A stretch of 64,000 bases of DNA from an uncultured Clostridium sp. (GTDB lineage Bacteria; Bacillota; Clostridia; TANB77; CAG-508), in contig USBY01000006.1 of NCBI GenBank assembly GCA_900553015.1, positions 19,999 to 83,998 on the forward strand, given 5' to 3'. The position numbers and the translations under genes were made by a program. This document shows positions 14,123 through 62,727 of the stretch, in pieces. The notes beneath the pieces were generated by a model, which saw only the letters and a program-made list of their open reading frames with translations, had not been told where the DNA came from and made no database searches. Position 1 is the first letter of the stretch, and each line of letters opens with the position of its first letter.

Positions 14123-14143
14123 ATTTTTTCAAGATTAATATAG

Positions 14144-35900: not shown

Positions 35901-37753
35901 TATTCTTGTTGTTCTCCTGTTACATATATTGTTAATGTTTTCGTTCCGTCAGGATTGTTTACCATATTGCTACTTTGTAAACGCAATCCATTTTCAAAAG
36001 ACATACCAATTTGTTCTATATTTACAGTTTCAAATTCACTTGGGAATATTACTTGTAATACTGGATTTTTGTATAAATCGTAGTCCATATTTTGTGTGTT
36101 TAAATTTAATTTCATATTTATTTTAGATTCATTATCTATTGTATAGAATTCTGTTTTATCTATTTCCATTGTAGATTTAGTAACTGTATTATATAGGTTA
36201 ATATTTTTTTCTGTAGTATTAGAGTAAATCATATTGTTTGTCTCAAATACTAGTTTTAATTGATTTATTGCTTTTAATTCATCATTGCTTATTCCATGAT
36301 TACTTATAATTTTTTTACTACTATTTATATGAATATTTCCTATTTTTGCTGGATCTTTTATTACAATTTTAATTCTTGATACATTTTCATAATTTACTAC
36401 TATATTTCCATTTTCATCTGCCTGTGTATCTTTATTAATAGTAATTATTAGATTTCCAGTATTTTCGTCATATATTTCTAAAGAACCTTTATCTCCTAAT
36501 ATTTCTGTAACTTCTGCTTTTGATATTGCTGTTCTTGTATAAGATGTTTTATTTGTTATATTTAAATTTGTTTCATCTCCAACTAAAGTGTTTTCTTTTT
36601 CTGTTATTTCTATATTTCTATTTGGTAAAATGTATTGTATTTGTACATTCATATTTACATCATAAGGTGTTTCGTATTTTTGCCAATACATATATCCTTT
36701 GCTTATATTTTCTGCACTACTTATATCTACTTTAGTTGTTTGATTTGTTTTCTCTTTCTCTAAATTATTTTCGAAAGAAATATTAGTTTCATTTAAATTA
36801 TATGGTTTTACTTTTAAGTTTTGCTTTACATTAATATTTACCTTGTCTAGATTAAATTGACTTCCATATACATATATAACATCATAGTTTATATTTCCTA
36901 ATAAATTATTTATCTCATTATTTTCATTTGAAGTATTTTCTTTTCTTATTAAAAGGGTTTTATTTTCCTTATCGTAAGTAAATTCATTTTCAGAAAGTTT
37001 CTTTCCATTTTCAGTTATATCTATTTCTTCTGGAATAGTTCCATTTATCTCTGGCACATTTGAACTAAATTCTACATATTCCATAGGTACTGTAATGTTA
37101 TTAATTGTTCCTAGTGTATTAGTAATTACTATAGACTTTCCATCAGCCTCGATATAGTTTTCTATATTTGTTTGTAATGCTCCTTCCACATTAGATATCC
37201 ATTTTAACCTTACAGCTATGTTACCTGATATATTTTTATTTGATTTCTGGCTATCAGTATATGTTCCTTCTAAAGTTATTTCTGTATCTCTTTCTAAATC
37301 AGTTAAGTTAACCTTGTCACCAGCTTTATAACTTATTTTTACAGGAATTTCTACATTTTCTGATATTTGATTAAGTTCTATACTGTTTTCTGTTTCATTT
37401 ACACTTTTGATAAGTGTATTTGACTTCAATTCTTCATAATTTATTGCAAAATTTGGATTATTTAAATTGATTTTTGCATTTTGAATAATTCCCTCTTGCA
37501 ATGAAATATTGAAATACAAATAATTTTCATCTTTTGTATTTACTTCAGCCATATGAACTTTATCTTCCCCGTTTTTTAAATACGCATCAAAATTAACCTT
37601 TCTATCTCCTGCCTCAGTTTTTTGATTTTCATACTCGCTAACTGCTGCAGCTACTTCTGATAGAAAAGTTCCATAAGAAGATATAATTACCATCACGATA
37701 ATTAATGCTGAAATAAATTTACTGCATATACTTAATTTCTTTTCTTTTTCCAT
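32930..37753 (-). CDS. Giant cell-surface protein (about 1607 aa): signal peptide, DUF11/Cna-B-type repeats, C-terminal TM plus basic tail. Start reassigned to ATG 37753 (RBS GAGGGG).
   Basis: Signal peptide MEKEKKLSICSKFISALIIVMVIISSYGTFLSEVAAAV. Cna-B-like NGYYEFNEVENGNYRVIFEYD. PDPDPDN linker. C-terminal ILIILILAILVLIARIIIKRRGG. Confidence 0.85.
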   Translation of the reverse strand: MEKEKKLSICSKFISALIIVMVIISSYGTFLSEVAAAVSEYENQKTEAGDRKVNFDAYLKNGEDKVHMAEVNTKDENYLYFNISLQEGIIQNAKINLNNPNFAINYEELKSNTLIKSVNETENSIELNQISENVEIPVKISYKAGDKVNLTDLERDTEITLEGTYTDSQKSNKNISGNIAVRLKWISNVEGALQTNIENYIEADGKSIVITNTLGTINNITVPMEYVEFSSNVPEINGTIPEEIDITENGKKLSENEFTYDKENKTLLIRKENTSNENNEINNLLGNINYDVIYVYGSQFNLDKVNINVKQNLKVKPYNLNETNISFENNLEKEKTNQTTKVDISSAENISKGYMYWQKYETPYDVNMNVQIQYILPNRNIEITEKENTLVGDETNLNITNKTSYTRTAISKAEVTEILGDKGSLEIYDENTGNLIITINKDTQADENGNIVVNYENVSRIKIVIKDPAKIGNIHINSSKKIISNHGISNDELKAINQLKLVFETNNMIYSNTTEKNINLYNTVTKSTMEIDKTEFYTIDNESKINMKLNLNTQNMDYDLYKNPVLQVIFPSEFETVNIEQIGMSFENGLRLQSSNMVNNPDGTKTLTIYVTGEQQEYLNNDITANTQISISGTVKTYQDLTSRDTNITYVYTNEKAITYDNNGTYNVPIKITAPYGFVMQTEVNGTTSKNKELKEVKLRANTVEQTIHVKETVVNNFDNTVNNFELVGMTPIEDRQYTLGENSINSNFNGEIVGNVYINRDDAKIYYSEDNENWSETKTENSNLFKISFDNSNLNKGDTVTIEYDLKIPENISYSKSSYVAFIANAKQNENEVNNWSGIKVSTEDMQLNEADPEASTVDESEIKTEISVVKGNVSLQAGEDVHDEQNLKYIIKLTNTTDKTINNIKLTATNTNAVFYEFMTKQVTEDLVNQGFYEVPDKKEQEFTIESLGAGEEVELNYQVIVKKAGDNSSTQATIKIAADSISEKEIKSIENPIKDAKLQILLDPGTTTGYPDSLTEDGAAIFGMKIKNLSNEDINDLVVSFYYTKNVVITEQILDSTPTNNAEIIENKDNTLKYTVKSIPAGQTVVIYTYALFNPLEDGLKTNTFYTFCNALYNDEEYLSGQLDFTVNKSLTTFKLEQTANIADQVKQDDNLIYTTEITNEGDIAADVTITDDVPENAVVNRAYLEQNGQQTELTVNGQVISIPATIQAKEQVKLVIETTINTYLNNNTEISNTVTLNSRQVKKEQTSNTIKHKIVDEISGEPGGGDEPNPDPDPDNPGTNISINGFTWNDADKDGVKDSSEVNIPDIRVLLITGTGTILQETTSSSNGYYEFNEVENGNYRVIFEYDTSKYYLSPYKANGIDENSNSDVLEAEIEENGQRKKVAATEELTVEDSDLNNINAGFIEFSARKLNISKTITKVTVKTNKSTKTYNFDRKQIAKVEIASKEMANAQIEIEYTIDIQNQGETAETIQEIVDTPSSDLQLKDTSGNWYSKGNDLATNQLENTTIGAGETKSIKLTMTTTTGSQGEGKNVVNKADISNVQSENANLNIDINSENNTAQLIIGVKTGAVQITILIILILAILVLIARIIIKRRGGLRKNGK

Positions 37754-37933
37754 AGGAACACCCCTCATAATTTGCATAAATATATATAATAAAATATAAC
37801 AATATAAAGCTTTTAGTTCAATATACTTATTTTTTGTCTTTTTTTATCGTATTAGATGCCTTTACGGATGTTCATTTCATTAAATTATTACAATTCCATT
37901 AAATATTTATTTTCTTTTTATTACACACAAAAA

Positions 37934-38011: not shown

Positions 38012-39262
38012 CTATGGCAAGTATTTTGCTGGATCAACTCTTTGTGAACCATTTACCCTTACTTCGAAATGTAAATGTGCTCCACCCTTAGGGTTGCTTG
38101 GTGTTGGCCTTGGACTTACATTCCCAGTATTACCTACTGTCATTATTTGTTGTCCCTGTGATACTTTTTGTCCTTCTTTTACTAATCTGCTTCCTGGTTT
38201 ACCATGAGCATATAATGTGATATTACCATCATCATGTAGTATTGCTATATATTCCCCATAACTTCTGTATTTACCTATCAAATTTCCATCTAAATCGTAG
38301 TTTGGAATTGTTCCTGTTAATGTTTCTGAAATAACTACAGTTCCGCTTTTTGCTGCAACTACTGGCTTTCCATAGTTACCTCCAAAATCTGCTCCTCCAT
38401 GACCAGAATATCCATAAAAACCACATGTTATATTAGCTTTACTTAACCCTGGAATTGGGCATATGTATCCTTTTGAACTTGTCCCACCATTATTGCTTCC
38501 TCCAGATGAGCCACCTCCACTATTACCTGAATTGTTGTTATTGTTTTTATTAGCATTTGCTATTTCTTCAAGTCTTTTATCAATAGCAGCTTTATCTTTT
38601 TCGAATTGGGCTAAATCTGCTTGTAGGTCTTTTGCTTCTCCCTCTAAATCATCTATGTATTTTTCTTTTTCTTGTTTAGTAGCATTTAACTCTTGAGTTT
38701 TTACTTCTTTTTCACTTTTTAATGTTTCTACTTCAGCTTTATCATTTTCTAGTGATTTCTTTGTTTCTTCTATTTGTTTTTGCTCATTTTGTATTTGTTC
38801 TAGTAAATCTAAATCATAAGAAGCTAATTCTGATATTAAATAATAATTAGATATGAACTCTGTTAAACTACTAGAAGATAGCAATAAATCTATGTAAGAT
38901 ACACTTCCATTTTCGTAAATTGTTACTAATCTTTCATCTAATAATTCCGAATTCTCGTCATACGCTTTTTGTTGTTCTTCTAATTTCTTTTCGTTTTCGC
39001 TTATGTTAGTATTTAATGTATCTAATTTATCATTTAAAGTATCTATAGAGCCTTGGTATTCATCTATTTTTGTTTGAATATCATCAACTTGTTTTTCTGT
39101 ATCTGTTTTTGTTGTATTTACATCATTTAATTGTTCTTTTGTTTTGTCTATTTTATCTTGTAAATCTTTTGAATCTTGTGATGAAACTCCTAAAGATATA
39201 TTGGTCATAATCATTATTGCTACTAGTATAATAGCCAATATCTTTTTTAACATTTGTTTCAT
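38012..39262 (-). CDS. M23-family peptidoglycan metalloendopeptidase with N-terminal signal/TM and long coiled-coil region (EnvC/LytM-like)
   Basis: C-terminal M23 motifs GHGGADFGG...HLHFEVRVNG. Preceding coiled-coil heptads. Gly/Ser/Asn linker. Confidence 0.9.
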   Translation of the reverse strand: MKQMLKKILAIILVAIMIMTNISLGVSSQDSKDLQDKIDKTKEQLNDVNTTKTDTEKQVDDIQTKIDEYQGSIDTLNDKLDTLNTNISENEKKLEEQQKAYDENSELLDERLVTIYENGSVSYIDLLLSSSSLTEFISNYYLISELASYDLDLLEQIQNEQKQIEETKKSLENDKAEVETLKSEKEVKTQELNATKQEKEKYIDDLEGEAKDLQADLAQFEKDKAAIDKRLEEIANANKNNNNNSGNSGGGSSGGSNNGGTSSKGYICPIPGLSKANITCGFYGYSGHGGADFGGNYGKPVVAAKSGTVVISETLTGTIPNYDLDGNLIGKYRSYGEYIAILHDDGNITLYAHGKPGSRLVKEGQKVSQGQQIMTVGNTGNVSPRPTPSNPKGGAHLHFEVRVNGSQRVDPAKYLP

Positions 39263-43777: not shown

Positions 43778-43909
43778 AAATATACTCCCCTTAAATCTCT
43801 TATAATATATTAAAAGGTATATCACAATATTACTATATTTTCAATATTTTTTTCGACAGTAGTAGACTTTTTTCAAATGCTTTTATATAATGCTAACGAG
43901 GTAGAAAAT

Positions 43910-44494
43910 ATGTTAGATATGTTAGGTAATTTAATAAAAAGTATTAGAACAAAAAAACATATGACAAAGACAAGTATTGCTAAACAAATAGGGGTAGATA
44001 CTGGCTATTTAACACATATAGAAAATGGTGATAGGAAACCTACAGTTAAAGTTTTACAAGAAATATGCAAGGCAATAGATGTTCCTTATCAAAAGTTTTT
44101 CGCTGCATATAATCATAAAATACCACAAGAAGCAATAGATTACGAAGTTTTTAAACACACTGCTGAAGACAGGATTCTTTTAGTAGATGATATAAATGAC
44201 TTACATTTTATGAAATGTCCACCAGGTCTTAATTCTGTTTCCTTTGGTATTCGACTTAATGATGACTCTATGGATAAAATCTATGACAAATATTCATATG
44301 TATTTGTAGATTTCGGGGCACCAGTAAAACCCCAAGATATTGGACTTTTTTATTACAATGGACAAATTTTGGTAAGAAGATTATTTATCTATGGAAAAAA
44401 TCATATTTCGTTATATCCAGATAATCCTAAATACCCTAAAATTCGAGTAAAAGAAAAAGACACATTTTATATAATTGGAAAAATTGTGCAATAA
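43910..44494 (+). CDS. CI/LexA-like transcriptional repressor: N-terminal XRE-type HTH plus C-terminal S24 peptidase-like domain with the catalytic Lys replaced by Arg. Start reassigned to ATG 43910 (RBS GAGGTAG).
   Basis: HTH MTKTSIAKQIGVDTGYLTHIENGDRKPTVKVLQEI. S24-like NDDSMDK...GQILVRRLF aligns with LexA GDSM...VKRL. Confidence 0.75.
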   Translation: MLDMLGNLIKSIRTKKHMTKTSIAKQIGVDTGYLTHIENGDRKPTVKVLQEICKAIDVPYQKFFAAYNHKIPQEAIDYEVFKHTAEDRILLVDDINDLHFMKCPPGLNSVSFGIRLNDDSMDKIYDKYSYVFVDFGAPVKPQDIGLFYYNGQILVRRLFIYGKNHISLYPDNPKYPKIRVKEKDTFYIIGKIVQ

Positions 44495-46046: not shown

Positions 46047-46122
<76 letters not shown>

Positions 46123-46133
46123 ATATGGTCATA

Positions 46134-46208
46134 TGGTGACCCGTACGGGAATCGAACCCATGTCTCCGCCGTGAAAGGGCGATGTCTTAACCGCTTGACC
46201 AACGGGCC
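46134..46208 (-). tRNA. tRNA-Glu (anticodon TTC), 75 nt with CCA
   Basis: GGCCCGTTGGTCAAGCGGTTAAGACATCGCCCTTTCACGGCGGAGACATGGGTTCGATTCCCGTACGGGTCACCA on the minus strand. Anticodon loop CTTTCAC. Confidence 0.9.
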
Positions 46209-46249
46209 ATAAATATAAATGAATACTAAAGATTAGTTTAGTATTCATT

Positions 46250-46325
46250 TGGTGAGCTATCCGCGACTCGAACGCGGGACAACTTGATTAAAAGTCAAGT
46301 GCTCTACCACCTGAGCTAATAGCCC
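46250..46325 (-). tRNA. tRNA-Lys (anticodon TTT), 76 nt with CCA
   Basis: GGGCTATTAGCTCAGGTGGTAGAGCACTTGACTTTTAATCAAGTTGTCCCGCGTTCGAGTCGCGGATAGCTCACCA on the minus strand. Anticodon loop CTTTTAA. Confidence 0.9.
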
Positions 46326-46607: not shown

Positions 46608-46871
46608 TTTTTTACCCTCCTTTTCACTCTAATGATATTATTTTAACATATTTTTTTATAAAAGTATAGACATTCATTCTAAATTATAGTAAAATTCCAC
46701 TATGGTAGGTGATTTGTATAAAAATTTTAATCAATCTATTTTTTATTTCATTTATTATTAACTTTTTTATTTCATTTTATTCAATATATTCAATTATTAG
46801 TTTTATTACTTCTCAAGATATTCAAGGAGTCAAACTAAGTAAAAAAATTAATTCTAAATAGTGGAGGTATT

Positions 46872-48557
46872 ATGCCCAAAAAAAGTATTATTTTGTTTTT
46901 TCTTACTTCATTTTGCTTTACTATTTTTAATTTAGCTATATTCTATCCTATTTTTACCTCTAATAATATTATTATTTCATTTGCTATTCATCCATTTAAT
47001 ATTTGCGATAAATATCCAGAATTTTGGCATTTTTTTAAAATATTTTACATACTTGCGCTAGTAGTAGCTAATTGTTCTATTTCTTATATGCTTATTAAAA
47101 ACCTTGTTCATCTTCCTTCTCCTAGCCTAGAACAAACACATCAACAACTTACTTCTAATTTATATTTAACTATAGGTTATAGCCAAAACCAAAACCAAGA
47201 TATTATCCTTCCAGATAAATCTTTATATCAGAACATTCTAATTACTGGTACTATTGGCAGCGGCAAAACTAGTTCTGCAATATATCCATTTTCAGAACAA
47301 TTAATAAAATATCAAAATAGTAATCCTTCTAAAAAACTTGGTATTTTATGTTTAGATGTAAAAGGTAATTTTTATGAGCAAATTAAGTTTTATGCAAAAA
47401 AATATAATCGTCTAAAAGATTTGATTATTATTGGACTAAATTCTAACGAAACTTATAATCCATTAGACAAACCAAATTTAAATCCACTTGTCCTTGCAAA
47501 CAGGCTAAAAACAATTCTAACTTTGCTTTCTCCTAACAATAGCGAATCATTTTGGTTAGATAAAGCAGAGCAAATACTAGCAGAGTCAATAAAACTATGT
47601 CGCCTTTATAATAATAACTATGTAAATTTTATAGAAATACATAAATTAGTTAATAATAAGGCATATTATTTTGACAAGATACGCTACTTAAGAAATTCGT
47701 TTTTAAAAAATAAATTTTCTACTGATGAATTATATAACTTAACTTCTGCAATTACTTTTTTCGAAAATGAATTTTTTAAATTAGATGAAAGAACTATCTC
47801 TATTTTAAAATCAGAAATCTCTAGAATTACTCTTCCTTTCATATCTGATTATAAAATTTCTAAGATCTTTTCTCCATCAAAAAACAAAATCACTTTTACA
47901 GGCTTTAGAGATCTTATCAAATCCGGAAAAATCGTAGTTCTTTCTATGAATATTGCAGAATTTACTAGCCTTTCCAAAATTATTGCAACATATTTAAAAT
48001 TAGATTTTCAAGCAGAAGTCATGTCTGGACTAAATCATAAAAATAGTAGAACTGTCGCTTTTATTTGTGATGAATATCAAGAATACATTACAGCTTCAGA
48101 TGCTAATTTTTTCTCAGAAAGTAGAGAAGCAAAATGTATAAACATTCTTTCTACTCAAAGTTATTCATCTTTACTAAATACTTTAAAAGACGAGTCCGCA
48201 TTAAAGGTAATACTACAAAATTTAGTAAATAAACTTTGGTTTAGAACTGATGATATATTTACTATAGAAAATGCCCAAAAGCAAATTGGTAAAGAAGACA
48301 AAAAGAAAGTTTCTAAAACTATTTCGGAAAATGCTCAAGAATCTAATTATAACTATCTTATTCGAAAATTCAAGTCTAGAAGCTCCAATCTTTCTGAGAG
48401 TATAAACACTTATTATCAATATGACTATATATATGATTCTCGTTTTTTTACCCAAGAATTAGAAACTTTTTCTTGCTTAGCATTTCTTTCTAATGGAACT
48501 ACCACAATTTCTCCACAAAAAATAGACATGTATCCTTATTTTAAAGAAAGGGAGTGA
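46872..48557 (+). CDS. VirD4/TraG-family type IV secretion coupling protein-like ATPase (2 N-terminal TM helices plus P-loop NTPase), 561 aa
   Basis: Walker A LITGTIGSGKTSSAIYPF followed about 25 aa later by CLDVKGNFYE, the characteristic DxKGE box of VirD4/TraG. Walker B-like AFICDEYQEY. Size and N-terminal TM pair typical of type IV coupling proteins. RBS GGAGGT. Confidence 0.55.
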   Translation: MPKKSIILFFLTSFCFTIFNLAIFYPIFTSNNIIISFAIHPFNICDKYPEFWHFFKIFYILALVVANCSISYMLIKNLVHLPSPSLEQTHQQLTSNLYLTIGYSQNQNQDIILPDKSLYQNILITGTIGSGKTSSAIYPFSEQLIKYQNSNPSKKLGILCLDVKGNFYEQIKFYAKKYNRLKDLIIIGLNSNETYNPLDKPNLNPLVLANRLKTILTLLSPNNSESFWLDKAEQILAESIKLCRLYNNNYVNFIEIHKLVNNKAYYFDKIRYLRNSFLKNKFSTDELYNLTSAITFFENEFFKLDERTISILKSEISRITLPFISDYKISKIFSPSKNKITFTGFRDLIKSGKIVVLSMNIAEFTSLSKIIATYLKLDFQAEVMSGLNHKNSRTVAFICDEYQEYITASDANFFSESREAKCINILSTQSYSSLLNTLKDESALKVILQNLVNKLWFRTDDIFTIENAQKQIGKEDKKKVSKTISENAQESNYNYLIRKFKSRSSNLSESINTYYQYDYIYDSRFFTQELETFSCLAFLSNGTTTISPQKIDMYPYFKERE

Positions 48558-48597
48558 TTTTATTAAAGTCAAAAAATTATTATTTATATTTATATTC

Positions 48598-48885
48598 TTG
48601 TTATCTTTTAATGTTTTTTTCATTTCAAAAACTTATGCTGCTGATCCTAAAATTGTTAGTAAACTAAATTCAGCATTCGAATCTATCGAAGAATGGTTAT
48701 TAAAATTAGCAACTCCTGCAGCTGCTGTAGCTGTTGGTACAGGTGTTTTTATGAAGAAATTTAGTTTTGGTGATGACGAAAGAATGCGACTTGGGAAAAA
48801 GTTAATAAAAAACTCTTTATTTTCTTATGGCTTTATATTAGCTCTAGATTTAATATTAGCTGCCATAAAGTCACTTATGGGTTAA
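48598..48885 (+). CDS. Small secreted/membrane protein, VirB2/TrbC-pilin-like (signal peptide plus two hydrophobic helices). Probably starts upstream at the ATT codon at 48562 (RBS AGGGAG), which would give a full signal peptide (M)KVKKLLFIFIFLLSFNVFFISKTYA|AD.
   Basis: Mature region LATPAAAVAVGTGVFM ...loop... SLFSYGFILALDLILAAIKSLMG. The reading frame is open upstream to the preceding gene's stop codon. Confidence 0.4.
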   Translation: MLSFNVFFISKTYAADPKIVSKLNSAFESIEEWLLKLATPAAAVAVGTGVFMKKFSFGDDERMRLGKKLIKNSLFSYGFILALDLILAAIKSLMG

Positions 48886-48889
48886 TATT

Positions 48890-49765
48890 ATGGAATCCAA
48901 TAATTTGTCTACAACGATAGCCAACACTATAAATGAACTTATACAAAATTTATTTTCTTCTATAGATAATAATATTTATTCATACATAGATGAAATTATT
49001 TTTTTAACTCCATCTAGTATCTCTAATAATAATTTTGAAGATTTATTTACTACTTCTTCTAAGAGTATATTGGTTATTGCTAATGCTCTAATTTTAGCTT
49101 ATCTGCTATATTATTGTGTAAAACTATTTTTATCTTATTATTCTGGTACACAAGTTCAAAGACCTTATCAGTTTATTTTCAAATTAATTTTATGTGCAAT
49201 CATCATGAATAGCTCATATTTTATTTGCGAACAATTAATTAACATTACAGATTTAATTACACAGGCATTGCAAGAAATTGGTAGTAATTTTACTTTTAAA
49301 ACAATTTCATTTAAAACATTGGTAACCGAGTTAAATTCTGTAATCTCTATATCTGGAACTTCTTTAGACATCTTTTCTTTAACTGGTATAATAAAATCTT
49401 TTTGCAGTATTGGGCTTATTTCTTTAATGTTTTCATATGCTATACGACTTATTATGGTAAAAGTATTTATTATCTTAGCCCCATTTGCAATTCTTAGTTG
49501 TTCTATCAATTCATTTAGCTGGTTCTTTAGAAGTTGGTTTAGATCATTTTTTTCACTTCTATTTATGCAGTTTTTTATAACTATTATACTAATAGTTACA
49601 TTATCTTTAGACTTTTCATCTAATCTTATCTCGAAATTTTTATATGTTGGTTCAATTTATGCACTCACAAAATCAAATACTTATATTCGTAGTTTAATAG
49701 GTGGTATTTCTACCGAAATTAATACAAATCTATCTACCTTAAAATCATTTCTTAGAGCGAGGTGA
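48890..49765 (+). CDS. Polytopic membrane protein, VirB6/TrbL-like (291 aa, 5-6 TM helices)
   Basis: Size and TM topology similar to VirB6. Hydrophobic blocks ILAPFAILSCSINSFSWFFRSWFRSFFSLLFMQFFITIILIV. Confidence 0.4.
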   Translation: MESNNLSTTIANTINELIQNLFSSIDNNIYSYIDEIIFLTPSSISNNNFEDLFTTSSKSILVIANALILAYLLYYCVKLFLSYYSGTQVQRPYQFIFKLILCAIIMNSSYFICEQLINITDLITQALQEIGSNFTFKTISFKTLVTELNSVISISGTSLDIFSLTGIIKSFCSIGLISLMFSYAIRLIMVKVFIILAPFAILSCSINSFSWFFRSWFRSFFSLLFMQFFITIILIVTLSLDFSSNLISKFLYVGSIYALTKSNTYIRSLIGGISTEINTNLSTLKSFLRAR

Positions 49766-50064
49766 TATTTATCTTTATAATTCCTCAAAATTTTAATTTT
49801 AAAAACAAATTTTTAGGTTTTATTGATTATTCTACTTTAATCTTTCTTATTATATGTTATCTAATATCTTATTTAATCATTAACTTTATATTTCCTAGTT
49901 TTTATACCAAAATAATAATATTTATAATACTTAATGTCCCTCTTACTTTACTTTCTATAATTGGTTTTTATAACGAAAATATTGTATATGTTTTATACTA
50001 TATTATTAAATTTTTTAAGAACAAAAATATATATTTCTATAAAAAAAATTTTTTTGATATGTAA
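49762..50064 (+). CDS. Small membrane protein (100 aa, 2 TM helices), VirB3-like position. GTG start overlaps the upstream stop codon (GTGA).
   Basis: Translationally coupled to the VirB6-like gene. Hydrophobic. Confidence 0.35.
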   Translation: MIFIFIIPQNFNFKNKFLGFIDYSTLIFLIICYLISYLIINFIFPSFYTKIIIFIILNVPLTLLSIIGFYNENIVYVLYYIIKFFKNKNIYFYKKNFFDM

Positions 50065-50162
50065 CCCCATATATTTTCTTAGTTTTGTAATTTTTTGTCG
50101 ATTCTTGTTATTGTAAAAAATTTTTTATAATGCTATAATGTTGTAATTGTAGGAGGGGAACC

Positions 50163-51125
50163 ATGAAATTAGAACAAAGTGACAAAAACTTTTTATTTTC
50201 AGAAACAAAATTACCAGATGTATTCTTTACAGAATACATGTCCCAAGCAAATGGTGATTATATAAAGGTATATTTATACATCGTTTTTCTTTCTAAATAT
50301 AACAAAGAAGTTAAAATTAACGATGTTTCAAAAACATTAAATATCCCTTTTAAAACAATTCAAGAAGCCATAGCATATTGGGAAGAGCAAGAAGTTCTAA
50401 TAAAGAAAAATAATGGATATATTGTAGTTGATCTACAAGAAAAAGAGTTGAATAAATTATATTCTCCTAGATTAACTTCATCTCCAGAAACAGCCCTTTC
50501 TAATGCCAAAAACCAATATCGAGCTAAAGCTATTGAAGACATCAATAACACTTGTTTCCAAGGTATGATGTCACCTTCATGGTATAATGATATCGATTTA
50601 TGGTTTAATAAATATGGTTTTGATGAACCAGTTATGATTGCATTATTTAGATATTGTTTAGAACGTTCTGCATTACATAGAAATTATATTCAAGCTGTTG
50701 CAGAAGGTTGGCATAAAAACAATATTAAAACATATACAGATTTAGAGAATTATTATGCAAAACAAGAAAAATTATCATTGATAAAGAAGCAAATTTCTAA
50801 AAAACTTGGTCTATCTCGTCCATTAACGCAATATGAAAGTGCTTATATAGAAAAATGGGTGGTAGATTATTCATATACTATGGATATAATAGAAATCGCT
50901 TTAAAGAAAACAACATCTAAATCTAACTTTAATTTTGATTATTTAGATAAATTAATTTCTAATTGGCATGAGCATAATTTACATACTACAACTGATGTTA
51001 ATAATTATCTTGCACAAATGAAAATTCAAAATCAAAACAAAAAGACTTTGGAAAAACAAACAAATTACAAAAGTTTCGAGCAAAGAACATATAATGATTT
51101 AGATTCATTATATGCAAATAATTAA
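50163..51125 (+). CDS. dnaB: Replication initiation and membrane attachment protein (B. subtilis DnaB-type, DnaD-like DDBH2 domains)
   Basis: N-terminal winged-helix-like region and two DnaD-like repeats (...IEKWVVDYSYTMDIIEIALKKTTSKSNFNFDYLDKLISNWHEHNL). Immediately upstream of dnaI, as in Bacillus. Confidence 0.75.
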   Translation: MKLEQSDKNFLFSETKLPDVFFTEYMSQANGDYIKVYLYIVFLSKYNKEVKINDVSKTLNIPFKTIQEAIAYWEEQEVLIKKNNGYIVVDLQEKELNKLYSPRLTSSPETALSNAKNQYRAKAIEDINNTCFQGMMSPSWYNDIDLWFNKYGFDEPVMIALFRYCLERSALHRNYIQAVAEGWHKNNIKTYTDLENYYAKQEKLSLIKKQISKKLGLSRPLTQYESAYIEKWVVDYSYTMDIIEIALKKTTSKSNFNFDYLDKLISNWHEHNLHTTTDVNNYLAQMKIQNQNKKTLEKQTNYKSFEQRTYNDLDSLYANN

Positions 51126-51136
51126 GGAGTTAGTTT

Positions 51137-52132
51137 ATGTCTGATAGTGTATTAAAAGATTTATTAAAAGAATATGAAATTAAACGATTACATGCTGAGC
51201 AACTTGCTGATGAAAAAAGAGACCAACTATTTAAGAAATATCCAGAATTTGAAGAAATAAATTCTGAAATTGCTAAATGTGGACTTAACCTTTCTAGAGA
51301 AAAATTGCAAACACATGATAATTCAAAAATTGATGTATTAAAACAAGAATTAGAATTATTAAAAGAAAAAAAACATAATTTCTTAAAAAGTATCAAGATG
51401 AGCGAGGATGATTTATTACCAAAATATGAATGTCCTATTTGTAATGATACTGGCTATATAGCTGAAAATAATAATTATACTATGTGTTCTTGTTTAAAAC
51501 AAAAATTAATAAATATTTCTTATAATAAATCTAATATAAATAAACTAGACTTCGAAAACTTTAGTAATTTTGATATTAATATGTATTCTGATGAAGTAAA
51601 TGAAGAAAAATATCATTCTTCTGTTTCTCCTAGACAAAACATATTAATAATAAAAAAGATTGTAGATAATTTCTTAGCAGACTTTGATAATCCTAAGGGA
51701 AAAAATTTATTATTTACAGGTAGTCCTGGACTTGGTAAAACATTTCTCTCTAATTGCATTGCTAAAGAATTAATTGATAATGGTAAAATCGTTTTATATC
51801 AAACTGCACCAATAATGCTTGATAATATAATTGATTGTAAATTTGGAAAGAATAATATTTCTAAAGATTTTTTGGATAATATATTTAATTCTGACCTTCT
51901 AATTATAGATGACTTAGGAACAGAGTCAATTAATAATATAAAATTTACAGAATTATTCAATGTTATTAATACTCGTATTTTGAGCAATAAAAAAACTATT
52001 ATCTCAACAAATCTTTCTATCCAAAATTTATTTTCTATCTATGATGAAAGAATTGTTTCAAGAATAGTTGGTTATTATAATATTTGTAAGTTTTTTGGTG
52101 ATGATATTAGGTTTAAAATAAGAAACATATAA
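51137..52132 (+). CDS. dnaI: Primosomal helicase loader DnaI (N-terminal Cys4 zinc domain plus AAA+ domain)
   Basis: CPICNDTGYI...CSC zinc module. Walker A LLFTGSPGLGKTFLSNCIAKEL. Walker B LLIIDDLG. Confidence 0.88.
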   Translation: MSDSVLKDLLKEYEIKRLHAEQLADEKRDQLFKKYPEFEEINSEIAKCGLNLSREKLQTHDNSKIDVLKQELELLKEKKHNFLKSIKMSEDDLLPKYECPICNDTGYIAENNNYTMCSCLKQKLINISYNKSNINKLDFENFSNFDINMYSDEVNEEKYHSSVSPRQNILIIKKIVDNFLADFDNPKGKNLLFTGSPGLGKTFLSNCIAKELIDNGKIVLYQTAPIMLDNIIDCKFGKNNISKDFLDNIFNSDLLIIDDLGTESINNIKFTELFNVINTRILSNKKTIISTNLSIQNLFSIYDERIVSRIVGYYNICKFFGDDIRFKIRNI

Positions 52133-52198: not shown

Positions 52199-52240
52199 TA
52201 ATTCACCCCTTGAGCGGTTGCTCAAGGGGTGAATATTTTT
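52199..52240. terminator. GC-rich perfect hairpin TTCACCCCTTGAGC-GGTT-GCTCAAGGGGTGAA followed by a T-run
   Basis: 14-bp perfect stem. GC content is atypical for this genome. Flanks the small sigma-like HTH gene. Confidence 0.55.
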
Positions 52241-52688: not shown

Positions 52689-52964
52689 TTAGTTTTGAGT
52701 ATATGGTAAAACAGCAATATGTCTTGCTCTTTTTACTGCTAAAGTAATATCTCTTTGATGTTTAGCACATGCTCCTGTTGCTCTTCTTGGTAATATTTTA
52801 CCTTTATCATTTATAAATTTTCTTAATTGTTCTGCATTTTTATAATCTAATTCTAAATCTTTATCTGCACATAAAGGACATACTTTTTTTCTCATTTTTC
52901 TAAATCTTGGATTGAAATCGTCATCATTTCTATTGTTTCTTCTATTTTGTTTTTTGTCTGCCAT
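52689..52964 (-). CDS. rpsR: 30S ribosomal protein S18
   Basis: [14 protein letters not shown]...[10 protein letters not shown]...[32 protein letters not shown], canonical S18. Confidence 0.95.
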
Positions 52965-52984
52965 TTATTTCTCCCCCTTTCTGA

Positions 52985-53407
52985 TTAAAATGGTAAATCA
53001 TCATTAGAAGTAGTTTCGAAGTCTGAATCTCCACCTGTTGGCATAGCACCAAATGCGTTATCAAAACCTCCTGAAGCTTCTGCATCTCTTCTTCCTTCTG
53101 CAAAATAAGCTTCTTCTGCAACAACTTCTGTTACATAATGTTTTTGACCTTGGTCATCATCCCAAGTTCTTGTTTGAATTCTTCCTATGATAGCAACTTG
53201 TTGACCTTTTTTAAAATATTTACTACAAAATTCTCCTAATTTGCTCCATGCTACTATATTAATAAAGTCGGCTTGTCTTTCTTCTCCTTGACGAGCAAAT
53301 CTTCTATTAACAGCTAATGAGAAAGAAGCAACTAGTGTATTATTTGTTTGTGTATATCTTACTTCTGGGTCTCTTGTTAATCTACCTAATAATTCTACTT
53401 TATTCAT
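52985..53407 (-). CDS. ssb: Single-stranded DNA-binding protein
   Basis: OB-fold N-terminus MNKVELLGRLTRDPEVRYTQ... and acidic C-terminal tail ...DDLPF. Confidence 0.95.
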   Translation of the reverse strand: MNKVELLGRLTRDPEVRYTQTNNTLVASFSLAVNRRFARQGEERQADFINIVAWSKLGEFCSKYFKKGQQVAIIGRIQTRTWDDDQGQKHYVTEVVAEEAYFAEGRRDAEASGGFDNAFGAMPTGGDSDFETTSNDDLPF

Positions 53408-53446
53408 ATTTTATCCCTTACCTTTCTTTTAAAGGCCCCCGTATTA

Positions 53447-53740
53447 TTATTTTTCTTTTCTTACTACGATAAATTTCATGATGTTGTCTTCTATTCTGTA
53501 ATTTCTTTCTAATTCATCTATTGAATCTGGTTTAGCTTCGAAGTTAATTACTACGTAATATCCTTCTTCTTTCTTTTTGATAGGATAAGCTAATTTTTGT
53601 GTACCACGTTCATCAACAGATTCTACTTTACCATTATTATTAATCAAATCTGTGAACTTTGTTACTAAATCTTTTATAGCTTGTTCTTCAATAGATGGAT
53701 TAATAATGATAACACTCTCGTATTTATTCATTATATTCAC
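53447..53740 (-). CDS. rpsF: 30S ribosomal protein S6
   Basis: MNKYESVIIINPSIEEQAIKDLVTKF..., canonical S6. RBS GAGGAGGTG. Confidence 0.95.
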   Translation of the reverse strand: MNIMNKYESVIIINPSIEEQAIKDLVTKFTDLINNNGKVESVDERGTQKLAYPIKKKEEGYYVVINFEAKPDSIDELERNYRIEDNIMKFIVVRKEK

Positions 53741-59261: not shown

Positions 59262-59999
59262 CTAATTATAGTTAACTTCTACTAAATATAATCCATAAGG
59301 TGGTAACGTTTTACCCGCTTTTTGTCTATCTTTTGATTCAATTATTTCCGTTATTTCTTCAGGTTTTATTTTTCCCAAACCAACCTCTACTAATGTTCCA
59401 GCTATTATTCTTACCATATTGTATAAAAATCCATTACCAGTTAATTCTATAGCGATTCGCTCATTATCTTTAATAACCTTAGCTGAATATATTGTTCTTA
59501 CACTACTTTTGCTACTTGTACCACTTGCTTTAAAACCTGCAAAATCATGCTCTCCAACAAAGTAATTTGCTGCTTCTTGCATCTTATTTACATCTAATGG
59601 CATTTTTATATTATATTCTAAATTTCTATAAATTGCACTTCCTGTTTCAGAATTATTAATTACATATCTATATGTCTTTTGTTTGCAATTATATCTACTA
59701 TGAAATCTATCTGGAACTTCTTCCGCTTTTTTTATAACAATAGATTTTTTCAATCTAGAGTTTATAGCTATTGCAAATTTTTCTATCGGAATAGTAGAAT
59801 TAGTTCTAAAATTTGCAACTTGTCCTAGCGCATGTACTCCTGCATCTGTTCTTCCAGAACCTATAAGTTCTATCTCTTCTTTTGTTATATCGGAAATAAC
59901 CTTTTCTATAGTACCTTGTATATTTAATTTATTTGGTTGCTTTTGCCAACCATTAAATTCTTTTCCATCATATTCTATAGTTAATTTGATATTTCTCAT
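59262..59999 (-). CDS. truA: tRNA pseudouridine(38-40) synthase
   Basis: [23 protein letters not shown]...[16 protein letters not shown] catalytic Asp motif. Overlaps the recR stop by 4 nt. Confidence 0.93.
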
Positions 60000-60595
60000 A
60001 TTTCCATACGTCCTTCTAAAGCTTGTAACAAAGTAATTTCATCTGTATATTCTAGGTCTCCACCTATTGGAATTCCTCTTGCAATTCTTGTAACTTTAAT
60101 TCCTAATGGTTTTATTAACTTAGACAAATACATAGCTGTTGCTTCCCCTTCTACTCTTGGATTTGTTGCTAAAATTACTTCTTTTACTTCTCCAGTTTGT
60201 AATCTTGTTAAAAGCTCTTTTATTTTTATATCATCAGGTCCTACACCATTCATTGGTGAAATCGAACCATGTAAAACATGGTAAACTCCTTTGTACTCAT
60301 GTGTTTTTTCCATAGCAATAATGTCTTTAACATCTTCTACAACACAAATAGTTGATTTATCTCTTTTTGGATTTGCACAAATAAAACATGGGTCAGTATC
60401 AGAAATATTAAAACATACAGAGCAATACTTTAAATTTTTTCTTGCTTCTTGTATAGATTTTACAAATTCCTCTGCGACTTCATCACTGCAATTTAGCATA
60501 TAAAAAGCAAGTCTTGTCGCTGTTTTATTTCCAATACTAGGTAATCTTTCAAAATTTTCTATTAATTTTTCTATTGATGGTGAATATATAGACAT
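59996..60595 (-). CDS. recR: Recombination protein RecR
   Basis: N-terminal HhH ([17 protein letters not shown]), C4 zinc finger ([16 protein letters not shown]), Toprim domain. Confidence 0.95.
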
Positions 60596-60604
60596 TTTTA
60601 CTCC

Positions 60605-60949
60605 TTACATTATTCCTGGTATATTAAATTTTCCCATTTGTTGTTCTGTTGCACTATCCACTTTACTTAACGCATCATTTACACATGTTATAATTAAATC
60701 TTGTAACATTTCTACATCATCTGGATCTACTATATCTTTATTTAATTTTATTTCTTTAATAACTTTCTTTCCGCTTACTTTTACAGTTATGGCTCCTCCA
60801 CCAGCTGTACTTTCAAATTCTTTGGCAGCTATTTCTGTTTGTGTCTTCTCCAAATCTGCTTGCATTTTTTTTGCTTCTTTCATTAAATTATTTAGGTTCA
60901 TTCCTCCGAATCCACCCATTCCTCCTGGAAATCCTCCACGTCTTCCCAT
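60605..60949 (-). CDS. ybaB: Nucleoid-associated protein YbaB/EbfC
   Basis: GGFPGGMGGFGGMNLNNLMKEAKKMQADLEKTQ... canonical YbaB. RBS AGGAGG. Confidence 0.9.
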   Translation of the reverse strand: MGRRGGFPGGMGGFGGMNLNNLMKEAKKMQADLEKTQTEIAAKEFESTAGGGAITVKVSGKKVIKEIKLNKDIVDPDDVEMLQDLIITCVNDALSKVDSATEQQMGKFNIPGIM

Positions 60950-60966
60950 AATTATACCTCCTAATT

Positions 60967-62586
60967 TTATTCTATTATATCTATTGGAATATCTAAACCT
61001 TCTACTAAATTCTCGAATTCTGATTTTGTTGGTTTAGCTTCCACATGATTATCTATTAATTTTACTTTCATTTCTTTTCCAAAAGCCATTGATACTTCTT
61101 TAGTTATGGCTTGCATATTTTCTGGTTTTTCTAAAATTCCTTTTGCTAGTGGCTTTAGTCCATTATTAAAATTAATTCCTACTGTCATATCATTTATTTC
61201 GGAAATATTTGTATTTAATAAATTCGTATATAGCCCCATTTTTCCTTCGGTTTTAAATTTTCCAACAATGTCTTTCCAAAATGCATTATTTTTTAATTCT
61301 TCGGGAGTTAATGATTTTCTTTCTACTTTCTTAACTGCTGTAGATTCTTTTCTTACTTCTGTATTGCTTCCATTAACAATTCTATTCTTTCCAACTTGGC
61401 TTAAAAAACTTTCTATTTTAAATAATCTTCTTTGTAATTCTTGTAAATCATTATTATTTATATTTTGACTATTTGGAATATCTGCAGGAATTTGCATTAC
61501 ATTTCCTTTATTTGAATCACATAGTTTTATAAATCCTGCTTCTAACATTATTGTCTTTTGAGAAGACCATTTCATATCATTTTCTAAATCTGATAATTGA
61601 TAAATCAAATGAACTAATTCTTCTTTGTTAGATTTATCTGCAAGTTCTTTCAACTTTTGTTTTTCTTCTTCACTATATATACCTGTTTCGCCTGTTACTT
61701 TATATAATAAAACATCTTTTACATATTTTATTACTTCCCATAAAAAGTTATTTTGATCTTTTCCTTCATTAATTACGGTTTTTAGTGTTTTTAGGCAATC
61801 ATCAATATTTTTTTCTAAAACACTGGTTACAATTTCTTCTATATAGCTTAACTTAGGTATTCCTACTAATTCTTTTACTTTATCTTCGCTTATCTCATTA
61901 TCTCCATCTTGCAGACATCTTTCCAAAATACTTAATGCATCTCTCATTGCTCCTTCTGACAAAGAAGCTACAATTTTTAATGCATTTTCATCTGCATCTA
62001 TTTTGCTAGATTCACATACAACTTTCAATCTTTTTACAATGTTTTCTAATGAGATTTTTTTAAAATCAAATCTTTGACATCTTGATAAAATAGTTGCTGG
62101 TAGTTTTTGAGGTTCTGTTGTTGCCAATATAAATTTAACATGTGCTGGTGGTTCTTCTAGTGTTTTTAGTAAAGCATTGAACGCACCCGTAGATAACATG
62201 TGAACCTCATCTATTATATATACTCTATATTTTGCAAGAGTTGGTAAGAAATTAACCTCGTCTCTTATAAGTCTTATATCCTCTACACTATTATTTGATG
62301 CTGCATCCATTTCCACAATATCTGTTAAAGATCCTGAAAGTGCAGCTTTACATATTTCACATTCATTACATGGTTCTCCATTTTTTGGATTTAAACAATT
62401 TACTGCCCTTGCTAATATTTTAGCAGCTGAAGTTTTTCCTGTTCCTCTACATCCATTAAATAAATACGCATGCCCAACTCGTCCAGCTATTAATTGATTT
62501 TTTAATGTTTTAGTAATATGTTCTTGCCCCACAATTTCGTCAAAAGTTAAAGGTCTAAATTTTCTGTATAATGCTGTATATGCCAT
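60967..62586 (-). CDS. dnaX: DNA polymerase III subunits gamma/tau. Start reassigned to ATG 62586 (MAYTALYRKFRP).
   Basis: AAA+ clamp-loader motifs (GCRGTGKTSAAKILA, zinc module CxxC...C, YIIDEVHMLS). Confidence 0.93.
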   Translation of the reverse strand: MAYTALYRKFRPLTFDEIVGQEHITKTLKNQLIAGRVGHAYLFNGCRGTGKTSAAKILARAVNCLNPKNGEPCNECEICKAALSGSLTDIVEMDAASNNSVEDIRLIRDEVNFLPTLAKYRVYIIDEVHMLSTGAFNALLKTLEEPPAHVKFILATTEPQKLPATILSRCQRFDFKKISLENIVKRLKVVCESSKIDADENALKIVASLSEGAMRDALSILERCLQDGDNEISEDKVKELVGIPKLSYIEEIVTSVLEKNIDDCLKTLKTVINEGKDQNNFLWEVIKYVKDVLLYKVTGETGIYSEEEKQKLKELADKSNKEELVHLIYQLSDLENDMKWSSQKTIMLEAGFIKLCDSNKGNVMQIPADIPNSQNINNNDLQELQRRLFKIESFLSQVGKNRIVNGSNTEVRKESTAVKKVERKSLTPEELKNNAFWKDIVGKFKTEGKMGLYTNLLNTNISEINDMTVGINFNNGLKPLAKGILEKPENMQAITKEVSMAFGKEMKVKLIDNHVEAKPTKSEFENLVEGLDIPIDIIE

Positions 62587-62611
62587 TTTACCACTTCCCT
62601 TTAATTTAAGT

Positions 62612-62727
62612 TTAGCCTCTCTATGGAAAGCAATTACCCACATAAATACACTACTTATTGCTGCTTCCTTCCGGACCTGACAAGGTTCATAGCTTTTTAT
62701 TGGGATTGCCCTCCATACAAAGGCTAA
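62612..62727 (-). ncRNA. ffs: Signal recognition particle RNA (4.5S / small-type SRP RNA; gene ffs)
   Basis: Minus strand contains the universal domain IV sequence GTCAGGTCCGGAAGGAAGCAGC, flanked by complementary arms TTAGCCTTTGTATGGAGGGCAAT / ATTGCTTTCCATAGAGAGGCTAA forming helix 5. Lies directly upstream of dnaX, as in other Firmicutes. TTGCTA-17-TATAAT promoter lies just upstream. Confidence 0.8.

Follow-up and report, generated by a model that had tools for sequence, protein, structure and literature searches.

A chromosomal module of the gut order TANB77 encoding a type IV coupling protein, a VirB2-type pilin and VirB6- and VirB3-like proteins, without a linked VirB4

A compact group of genes for components of a type IV secretion system (T4SS), which the uncultured human gut order TANB77 (Clostridia) carries as a fixed part of its chromosome, was characterized in a 64-kb stretch of DNA (hereafter, the window) from the genus CAG-354. 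The family identities of its products, that of the VirB3-like protein on weaker evidence, and the local absence of genes for VirB4, relaxase and integrase are shown; the module occurs order-wide without a linked VirB4, and a VirB4 gene located elsewhere in the genome is not excluded. The module is best explained as a monoderm conjugative T4SS that was reduced and domesticated, leaving a membrane translocon driven by the coupling ATPase (T4CP) and most likely serving DNA. This reading is as likely to fail as to stand, its VirB4-free working, substrate and direction of transport being inferred.

The module is represented by four closely spaced co-directional ORFs on the plus strand, at positions 46872-50064 of the window. 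These encode a T4CP of the VirD4/TrwB/TraD family (46872..48557, 561 aa); a VirB2/TrbC-type pilin precursor (48562..48885, 107 aa from a probable ATT start); a VirB6/TrbL-like polytopic membrane protein (48890..49765, 291 aa); and a PrgI/VirB3-like protein with two transmembrane (TM) helices (49762..50064, 100 aa, GTG start). The gap between the T4CP and pilin genes is 4 nt, if the ATT start is assumed, as is the gap between the pilin and VirB6-like genes, and the last two genes overlap by GTGA (GTG at 49762-49764, TGA at 49763-49765). A tRNA-Thr/Glu/Lys cluster is located nearby on the minus strand (46047-46325). Downstream, on the plus strand, are the gene of the DnaD-domain protein ‘dnaB’ (50163-51125; Pfam DnaB_2, 6.6e-31) and the gene of a DnaI/DnaC-like helicase loader (51137-52132; NCBIfam PRK06835, 355 bits). 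The co-directional block ends at a strong bidirectional terminator-like hairpin at 52201..52234 (both strands; 15-bp stem with 8 GC pairs, T-rich tails on each side). No terminator-like site was found between 50064 and 50163, and a promoter-like site is present at 50111-50139. The preliminary description, made from sequence alone, had claimed four packed genes of one direction, the last coupled through the GTGA overlap, between the tRNA cluster and dnaB–dnaI; coordinates, strand, spacing and setting were confirmed on rechecking, and the overlap held at the level of sequence. It had missed a conserved small ORF directly 5' of the T4CP gene.

This ORF (46709..46861, plus strand; 50 aa as listed, the precise start being uncertain) ends 10 nt ahead of the T4CP ATG and encodes a single-TM peptide with the C-terminal motif QG(V/S)KL, retained in relatives down to ~52-57% T4CP identity. 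Its last 18 codons show coding-type variation, with pS of 0.27-0.73 in comparisons with congeneric species, and its first 32 codons have abnormally low pS, 0.05-0.13 in eight of nine of these species and 0.27 in L022; the region matched no Rfam family, and no RNA fold in it was significant. The gene of this membrane peptide is likely the fifth gene of the module. A promoter-like element, TAGACA-17 nt-TAAAAT, was located by consensus scan 5' of the module (46667..46695, plus strand), and the block AAAGTATAGACATT...TTATAGTA(A/G)AAT is nearly invariant in 15 species, in which coding synonymous sites are near saturation. A promoter role of this element is possible, the function being inferred from sequence.

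The T4CP is matched by the Pfam families TrwB_AAD_bind (46.2 bits, cut-off 20.5) and TraG-D_C (27.0 bits, cut-off 22), and no VirB4-type family was reported for it in the Pfam profile search. Hydropathy analysis predicts two N-terminal TM helices (residues 6-24 and 57-75), followed by a P-loop domain; the best fold match is TrwB, and, as in TrwB, the nucleotide-binding domain contains an all-alpha insertion. Both Walker A (G126-T133) and Walker B (D400, E401) are unchanged in 33 homologues. No relaxase partner for this protein was found in the 64-kb window.

The pilin ORF was listed with a TTG start (48598-48885, plus strand, 95 aa). An in-frame ATT lies upstream at 48562, preceded at a distance of 7 nt by a Shine-Dalgarno sequence (GGGAG), and translation from this ATT yields a proper Sec signal peptide, (M)KVKKLLFIFIFLLSFNVFFISKTYA, with predicted cleavage after TYA and ahead of ADPK. 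The start codon is ATA or ATT in most species of the same genus and ATG in more distant relatives. The mature protein of ~81 aa comprises a pair of hydrophobic helices connected by a charged loop, as judged from the alignment, the upstream translation and hydropathy. Against PF18895 (T4SS_pilin), the window protein scored 22.5 bits, under the cut-off of 26.6; all 34 orthologues searched match this family (best 4e-8), and four also match TrbC (PF04956). dN/dS is 0.04-0.14. The protein is thus likely a VirB2-type pilin by family, its polymerization into a pilus or role in a channel being only inferred.

Five TM helices are predicted by hydropathy in the 291-aa protein. Twelve of its 32 orthologues match TrbL (best 3.8e-5), all under the gathering score, and the window protein itself is unmatched. 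In its structure model, the confidence of which is moderate (pLDDT 65), TrwI is the single best structural match, and the fold is of VirB6 type. The assignment by VirB6 size and topology made in the preliminary description held; its claim that the size is Gram-negative and unlike the more than 700-aa homologues of Firmicute ICEs failed, since PrgH, the VirB6-like protein of the Gram-positive pCF10 system, has 266 aa, and a VirB6 of ~270 aa is nothing odd in Gram-positive systems. Split ORFs were observed in some MAGs, namely, in the VirB6-like gene of L024/L025 and in L015, L027 and L038.

The 100-aa protein has TM helices at 26-44 and 51-69 (hydropathy), forming a hairpin preceded by a conserved N-terminal motif K-x-x-G-I-I-D-Y, and a dN/dS of 0.10-0.24. 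Pfam PrgI is matched by 38 of 121 family members (best 0.0016) and VirB3 by four (best 0.0085), the next family in the same search having nine members. None of the PrgI or VirB3 matches reaches the cut-off, the window protein itself is unmatched, and hhalign against the single pCF10 PrgI and PrgH sequences was not significant. A PrgI/VirB3-like identity is considered likely on these weak but consistent sub-threshold matches.

A related block was found in locus L050 of a Symbiobacteriaceae MAG. There, the gene for ParB is followed by genes for a T4CP (35% identical to that of the module), a T4SS_pilin-like and a VirB6-like protein, arranged as in TANB77, and then by those for a C39-type hydrolase, a protein of 81 aa and VirB4 (P-loop_TraG/AAA_10). 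Homology of the L050 pilin and VirB6 to those of TANB77 is detectable. With ParB before the block and hydrolase, 81-aa protein and VirB4 after it, L050 resembles a mobile element or a full T4SS, whereas the TANB77 module ends after the VirB3-like gene. The occurrence of the T4CP-pilin-VirB6 block inside a VirB4-containing cluster suggests descent from a complete monoderm T4SS. The local order in pCF10 (small TM proteins, PrgH, PrgI, then the VirB4 PrgJ) also matches. A module unrelated to T4SS, with an ATPase of HerA/FtsK/DndH type and unrelated membrane proteins, was rejected and is all but excluded by the T4CP-specific profiles above curated cut-offs, the family-wide pilin, VirB6 and PrgI signals, the TrwI match and the L050 block. 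Accordingly, placement of the ATPase in a non-T4SS family, which would have refuted the preliminary description, was not borne out, and its four identifications, namely, a VirD4/TraG-type ATPase with two N-terminal TM helices, a VirB2/TrbC-like signal-peptide protein with two hydrophobic helices and an apparently non-canonical start, a VirB6-like protein and a VirB3-like protein, all held, the last on weaker evidence than the others.

Comparative genomics of the four-gene set, proposed in the preliminary description, showed its conservation in ~50 species-level genomes. All 49 related loci contain the complete set with unchanged gene order, so it is not a chance association; in an HMM search of 51 loci, the pilin and VirB6-like genes were found in all and the VirB3-like gene in 49. 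Identity of the T4CP falls from 96% to 39% across relatives, its divergence tracks that of dnaB (Spearman rho 0.84) and dnaI (0.81) next to the module, and dN/dS is 0.04-0.24 over all four genes. GC content across the module (~0.20-0.28) is like that of protein-coding DNA on either side, and both flanks are occupied by syntenic housekeeping genes. Vertical inheritance, purifying selection and a housekeeping context are thus shown. Hallmarks of an ICE or mobilizable element were not detected: there is no integrase or relaxase in the 64-kb window, no GC island and no patchy distribution, and IMG/VR yielded only one partial match. The preliminary description had left open a decayed conjugative remnant or a compact translocation system. 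A decaying ICE remnant without present function would be consistent with the missing VirB4, relaxase and integrase, the nearby tRNA cluster and frameshifted genes in a few MAGs. This explanation was rejected as very unlikely, because gene order is kept over such divergence under purifying selection, ATPase motifs are invariant, divergence follows that of neighbouring essential genes and no compositional island exists; the compact system is favoured.

The genes dnaB–dnaI are found next downstream in 43 of the 47 loci that could be evaluated and are regarded as context; their co-transcription with the module is possible, and functional membership is not shown. A bolder reading, a VirB4-independent, T4CP-powered conduit moving chromosomal DNA in or out and coupled to these primosome genes, e.g., by helicase priming or loading on translocated single-stranded DNA, is inferred, unsupported by DNA import data and improbable.

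VirB4, relaxase, integrase and a dedicated hydrolase were not found in the 64-kb window, where all ORFs of ≥497 aa, and most of ≥150 aa, have another assignment or no match. A tblastn search with the L050 VirB4 was also blank in the window and revealed no VirB4 within ~8 kb of the module in ~50 related loci; the gene after the VirB3-like one is never virB4, being dnaB or, in L015, convergent unrelated genes. The absence of VirB4, relaxase and recombinase claimed in the preliminary description therefore held within the window and, for VirB4 only, in the flanks of relatives, and the claimed absence of a hydrolase held for a dedicated one at the module, unlinked peptidoglycan hydrolases being present in the window. 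An adjacent complete ICE with VirB4 and relaxase, another outcome that would have refuted that description, was not found in the 64-kb window. According to PMC4027160, VirB4 is the sole ubiquitous T4SS protein. VirB3 normally anchors VirB4, and virB3 usually adjoins virB4 or is fused to it; a VirB3-like protein without VirB4 remains unexplained and counts against the VirB4-less reading.

A less favoured possibility is that the module represents a single part of a chromosomal T4SS that is scattered but otherwise complete, a conventional machine with VirB4, and perhaps VirB8-like and hydrolase genes, located elsewhere. The VirB3-like protein would then regain its usual partner; the window encodes a PcsB-like M23 peptidase (38012-39262) and a glucosaminidase (6473-7966); and only 64 kb, plus ~16 kb per relative, was inspected, not whole TANB77 genomes. 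In Patescibacteria, only 148 of 5,713 T4CP genes are near virB4 (PMC12102498), and the T4SS genes of Rickettsia are scattered. Against this, T4SS components generally lie within ~20 CDS of virB4 (PMC12102498), yet VirB4 is beside the module in none of ~50 genomes; in L050, only hydrolase and 81-aa protein genes separate VirB6 from VirB4, so the absence in TANB77 looks like deletion rather than dispersal.

In the translocon reading, VirB4, the wall hydrolase, VirB8-like parts and relaxase of the ancestral element would have been lost from the locus, and the core would be retained: a membrane-anchored T4CP, a Sec-exported VirB2-type pilin, a VirB6-type channel or platform, a PrgI/VirB3-type protein and the small membrane peptide. 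The T4CP hexamer would dock on the VirB6/VirB3 platform in the membrane and power the passage of a cytoplasmic substrate through the cytoplasmic membrane with ATP, in a direction left open, and the pilin may form a short extracytoplasmic conduit or fibre. DNA is the most likely substrate, because T4CPs are the DNA/substrate translocases of such machines; no expression or functional data support this reading, and no relaxase, oriT or DNA-processing gene is linked. Alternatively, a functional reduced system may not translocate DNA, forming a VirB2-type fibre or adhesin or secreting protein or another molecule for interaction with neighbouring cells or the host; it would then be comparable to the T4SS on which epibiotic growth of Patescibacteria depends. 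In favour of this, TANB77 are uncultured and have reduced genomes (PMC11680825), the chromosomal relaxase-less T4SSs of Patescibacteria with VirB2-like pilins near replication genes are thought to be co-opted and non-conjugative, and no relaxase or oriT-processing gene is linked in the window. However, pilus biogenesis in studied systems requires VirB4 and not the T4CP, the ATPase kept here, and the T4CP was the non-essential component in Ca. S. epibionticum (PMC12102498). Known T4SSs serving only DNA uptake, pili or periplasmic cargo export (ComB, Trw, Ptl) lack a T4CP and retain VirB4 (PMC12857230); the module shows the opposite, which favours translocation over a pilus-only role, and the non-DNA alternative is judged unlikely.

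VirB4 is the signature and only universal T4SS component for detection tools and classifications, and surveys centred on it would miss this module. If the translocon reading is true, an assembly of VirB2, VirB3 and VirB6 would have a coupling protein as its resident motor, and a conjugation apparatus would have been domesticated by the host chromosome in a monoderm bacterium; until recently, the only described case of such domestication was archaeal Ced/Ted, with Patescibacteria as a proposed one. If the bolder reading is true, the module would be a bacterial counterpart of Ced/Ted built from VirB2, VirB3 and VirB6 homologues, and the rule of VirB4 indispensability for T4SS-derived machines would be overturned. 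TANB77 bacteria are common in the human gut and have been associated with the response to checkpoint-blockade therapy; together with their reduced genomes, this makes their surface or exchange machinery of practical interest.

Among known systems, Prg/Pcf of the Enterococcus plasmid pCF10 (MPF-FATA) shares with the module a T4CP (PcfC-type), as well as small membrane proteins encoded ahead of a ~270-aa VirB6-like protein (PrgH) and, immediately downstream of the latter, a PrgI/VirB3-like two-TM protein; in contrast, the module locus lacks VirB4 PrgJ, hydrolase PrgK, VirB8-like PrgL, relaxase and adhesins and is chromosomal and vertically inherited, not on a mobile element. It contains a VirB2-type pilin, whereas Gram-positive T4SS classes are stated to lack one. 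In Streptomyces, the motor TraB, which resembles coupling proteins and acts together with small membrane (Spd) proteins, provides a precedent for DNA transport in the absence of VirB4, but it is FtsK-like and plasmid-borne, translocates dsDNA and has no VirB2, VirB3 or VirB6 homologues. ComB of Helicobacter pylori is likewise a repurposed, chromosomal, non-conjugative T4SS subset; unlike the module, it keeps VirB4, lacks a T4CP and belongs to a diderm with VirB7-10.

Archaeal Ced/Ted (PMC9905601) are similar minimal chromosomal sets without a mobile element, comprising one ATPase, VirB2-like and VirB6-like proteins and a small two-TM protein (CedA2), but their ATPase (CedB/TedB) is VirB4/HerA-like, whereas that of the module is a T4CP, and no sequence relationship is detectable. 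DNA import was shown experimentally for Ced (PMC9905601), and nothing has been shown for the module. T4SSs of Patescibacteria/CPR (PMC12102498) are VirB4-defined, with a T4CP usually located elsewhere and dispensable, whereas in the module the T4CP is linked and VirB4 is not, and their pilins form an array in place of a single gene. Like the module, they are chromosomal, lineage-wide and relaxase-less, encode PF18895 pilins and PrgI and VirB6 homologues, derive from monoderm conjugation systems and are located near replication genes in reduced genomes.

The module consists of four closely packed genes on the + strand, encoding a type IV coupling protein (T4CP) ATPase (46872-48557), a pilin (48598-48885 as listed, with a TTG start), a VirB6-like protein of 291 aa (48890-49765) and a VirB3-like protein of 100 aa (49762-50064). 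The gap between the pilin and VirB6-like genes is only 4 nt, and the VirB6-like and VirB3-like genes, the last pair, overlap by GTGA. Genes tRNA-Thr/Glu/Lys are located 5' of the module on the opposite strand, and a DnaD-domain 'dnaB', followed by a gene for a DnaI/DnaC-like loader, is located 3' of it. The four ORFs agree exactly with the preliminary description, and the GTGA overlap and the position between a tRNA cluster and dnaB-dnaI were confirmed as well.

Scanning a single genome for each species yielded 57 loci. In the 49 loci from Clostridia, the T4CP, pilin and VirB6-like genes share one order, as does the VirB3-like gene wherever it was detected by tblastn. With family HMMs, pilin and VirB6-like genes were found in 51 of 51 loci and the VirB3-like gene in 49 of 51, the two loci without a match being a contig end and the divergent locus L050 of a Symbiobacteriaceae MAG. 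T4CP identity to the window protein ranges from 96% (Clostridium sp. CAG:354) down to 39%; the GTDB genus CAG-354 belongs to the order TANB77, family CAG-508 (bioRxiv 10.1101/2021.05.11.441322). Divergence of the T4CP tracks that of the adjoining dnaB (rho 0.84) and dnaI (rho 0.81), dN/dS is 0.04-0.24 for all four genes, and GC content revealed no island at the module. The gene dnaB lies within 1.5 kb 3' of the module in 43 of the 47 evaluable loci; in L015, a related locus without a following dnaB, the VirB3-like gene is the last module gene and is followed by convergent unrelated genes. Because of this synteny, co-divergence, low dN/dS and the end of the L015 module at the VirB3-like gene, the four genes are a conserved unit, vertically inherited and maintained by selection. 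The alternative initially put forward, a decayed remnant of a conjugative element, is therefore refuted.

Upstream, genes for a DUF1858 protein, an SDR, a CBM protein and a CI/LexA-like repressor (HTH_3 and Peptidase_S24; 43877-44494, 2.4 kb 5' of the module) are syntenic in close relatives. The repressor may have regulated the ancestral element and been left behind, or it may be an SOS-type regulator.

The ATPase matches the Pfam families TrwB_AAD_bind (46.2 bits) and TraG-D_C (27 bits), both above curated thresholds, and TraD of NCBIfam below threshold; hydropathy indicates two N-terminal TM helices, and Walker A and Walker B are unchanged in all 33 homologues compared. Its fold is that of the VirB4/VirD4/HerA superfamily, and the sequence profiles together with the TM-anchor architecture identify it as a T4CP. 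Matches in the plasmid database are ordinary T4CPs of about 23-29% identity, one of which adjoins a MobF relaxase gene on a mobilizable plasmid and another an integrase gene; they confirm the family only and were rejected as close relatives. Distant T4CPs of loci L052-L057 (Dormibacterota, Vicinamibacteria and others), lacking pilin, VirB6 and VirB3 partners, were likewise rejected as instances of the module. The IMG/VR scan gave a single contig with a T4CP fragment at its end and no other module part; this contig, L061, opens (positions 13-252) with an 80-residue fragment corresponding to residues 155-234 at 70% identity, and is either a chimeric assembly or a phage inserted in the T4CP gene. 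Sequence searches of the PDB with the ATPase and with family profiles of the other three proteins gave nothing meaningful, and the PHROGs search gave no useful match. Structure models rested on homologues taken from databases, at 44-96% identity, and their confidence was probably lowered by this.

The small protein of the window falls slightly below the threshold of PF18895 (T4SS_pilin), a family matched by all 34 orthologues tested (best 4e-8), while TrbC/VirB2 was matched by four. Visible in the alignment are a signal peptide, a cleavage context of the A-x-A type and a pair of hydrophobic helices with a charged loop between them. If the ORF begins at the listed TTG, the signal peptide is stunted; a normal one results from an in-frame upstream ATT (48562), which a GGGAG Shine-Dalgarno sequence precedes by 7 nt and at which the gene appears to start. 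The corresponding codon reads ATA or ATT in the majority of congeneric species and ATG in more distant relatives. The non-canonical start suspected earlier is thus well supported by the Shine-Dalgarno sequence, the restored signal peptide and the start codons of relatives. This Shine-Dalgarno sequence sits within the end of the T4CP gene (48550-48564), and a similar GTGATTT(G/T)(T)ATAAAA context occurs at a small ORF upstream of the T4CP gene.

Hydropathy predicts five TM helices in the 291-aa protein, for which no Pfam match was found; TrbL/VirB6 was matched by 12 of its 32 orthologues. A VirB6-like protein 98% identical to it (P0180) is encoded on a contig of roughly 1.85 Mb. The precomputed label PF19590 on relatives of this protein was set aside, not being reproduced in the Pfam profile search. 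The 100-aa protein has two predicted TM helices and resembles PrgI of the Enterococcus conjugative plasmid pCF10 in size, two-TM hairpin and place straight after VirB6. Within its family, PrgI was matched by 38 of 121 members (best 0.0016), VirB3 by four, and no Pfam family other than PrgI by more than nine; hhalign comparisons of family alignments with single sequences of pCF10 PrgI, pCF10 PrgH and the 81-aa protein of L050 were not significant. All four assignments made from sequence alone therefore held, with unequal support: the VirD4/TraG-type coupling ATPase with two TM helices on curated profiles and hydropathy, the VirB2/TrbC-like pilin on its orthologues, the polytopic VirB6-like protein on topology and 12 of 32 orthologues, and the VirB3-like protein on the weakest evidence of the four.

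In some relatives module genes are interrupted. The same +1 frameshift breaks the VirB6-like gene in L024 (9911-10862) and L025 (2194-3145), loci of two different MAGs, both halves being otherwise intact, and single split ORFs occur in L015 (VirB6-like), L027 (pilin) and L038 (VirB3-like); real splits, programmed frameshifts and assembly errors are each possible.

A promoter-like sequence TAGACA-17-TAAAAT (46667-46695) is near-invariant across 15 species; transcription would be expected to begin near 46702. Between it and the T4CP gene, a 50-aa ORF (46709-46861) codes for a peptide with one TM helix and, at the C terminus, the motif QG(V/S)KL, kept in relatives to about 52-57% T4CP identity; it is a probable fifth module gene. 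Its last 18 codons show coding-type variation between species of the genus (pS 0.27-0.73), and synonymous sites of the first 32 codons are near-frozen (pS 0.05-0.13 in eight of nine species, 0.27 in L022); for the T4CP gene, these species pairs give pS 0.55-0.63. A regulatory element acting at the DNA level, or a second, short reading frame overlapping the first, may account for this low synonymous change. The conserved 5' region matched no Rfam family and gave no significant or stable RNA fold; a 15-nt direct repeat, TTTTTTATTTCATTT, occurs twice in 46702-46861. Downstream, no terminator-like site was found between the VirB3-like stop and dnaB, a strong bidirectional hairpin (52201-52234) ends the gene block, and dnaB has a good promoter-like site of its own (50111-50139); the module may therefore be co-transcribed with dnaB-dnaI, which has not been shown.

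A Pfam scan of all window ORFs of at least 497 aa and most of at least 150 aa detected no VirB4, relaxase or integrase, and tblastn with the bona fide VirB4 of L050 found no VirB4 in either the window or the Clostridia loci, whole genomes being outside the search. The absence of VirB4, relaxase and integrase noted originally thus held within the window and, for VirB4, in the related loci too. Since whole genomes were not covered, which is the chief caveat, it remains possible that VirB4 is encoded elsewhere.

The scanned ORFs encode rpoB, cell-wall enzymes, Tex, ABC-F, PFL and its activase, TruA, RecR, DnaX and others, as well as an NRPS-like pair and two SdrD_B-type surface proteins. The NRPS-like pair (12315-18421), noteworthy for a gut bacterium with a reduced genome, comprises an AMP-binding enzyme that stands alone (12315-13859, - strand) and a protein of the condensation-adenylation-thiolation-reductase type (14144-18421, + strand); a histidine kinase-like gene follows the pair. 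The two SdrD_B-type proteins, very large (1543 and 1615 aa) and encoded side by side (28309-37777, - strand), with SdrD_B-like domains as the sole recognisable ones, are likely surface adhesins.

As to origin, L050 encodes ParB, a T4CP (35% identity), T4SS_pilin-like and VirB6-like proteins, a C39-type hydrolase, the 81-aa protein and VirB4 (P-loop_TraG/AAA_10), and its pilin and VirB6 have detectable homology to TANB77 proteins. The pCF10 order PrgH-PrgI-PrgJ(VirB4) repeats that of the VirB6-like and VirB3-like genes, with VirB4 next in pCF10. The simplest history, which is inferred, is that the ancestor was a monoderm type IV secretion system (T4SS) already possessing a VirB2-type pilin and became fixed in the chromosome, after which the hydrolase, VirB4 and all further downstream parts would have been lost.

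Where such systems have been characterised, the cytoplasmic substrate passes to the T4CP for translocation, VirB6 builds the membrane translocon together with VirB3 and VirB8, and the conduit outside the cell consists of VirB2. The T4SS derivatives ComB, Trw and Ptl, confined to DNA uptake, pilus display or the export of periplasmic cargo, retain VirB4 but no longer have the T4CP (PMC12857230), whereas the module shows the reverse pattern, a T4CP without linked VirB4. Because the T4CP was kept, the retained activity is inferred to be substrate translocation across the cytoplasmic membrane, in which the T4CP, as sole motor, would move the substrate, most likely DNA. A coupling-protein-like motor that works without VirB4 has a precedent in Streptomyces TraB. 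This reading could as well prove wrong as right, and the direction of transport, what is transported and a possible connection with the neighbouring primosome genes are speculative; of the rival views, a VirB4 encoded elsewhere is considered less likely than this reading, and a function other than with DNA unlikely.

No account of such a module was found in the literature searched on VirB4-less systems and PF18895. A 2025 nomenclature review lists systems without VirD4 and, in the sections consulted, none without VirB4 that keeps VirB2, VirB3 and VirB6. A paper on a TANB77 'conserved pilin' (PMC11680825) was rejected as an account of the module, since it concerns a Tad/type IVc pilus cluster and mentions neither conjugation nor T4SS. 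The module is accordingly likely to be an undescribed variant of T4SS-type machinery, within the limits set by the lack of a genome-wide VirB4 check. Closest to it among described systems are the relaxase-less T4SSs encoded in Patescibacteria chromosomes, located near replication genes like the module (PMC12102498), and the archaeal Ced/Ted importers (PMC9905601). Genes rpsF-ssb-rpsR, recR and dnaX, typically origin-proximal in Firmicutes, are found no more than about 10 kb from the module (52689-53740, 59996-62643), a setting resembling that of the near-origin Patescibacteria T4SS genes, although the position of oriC relative to the window is undetermined. Both the Patescibacteria systems and Ced/Ted are built around VirB4.
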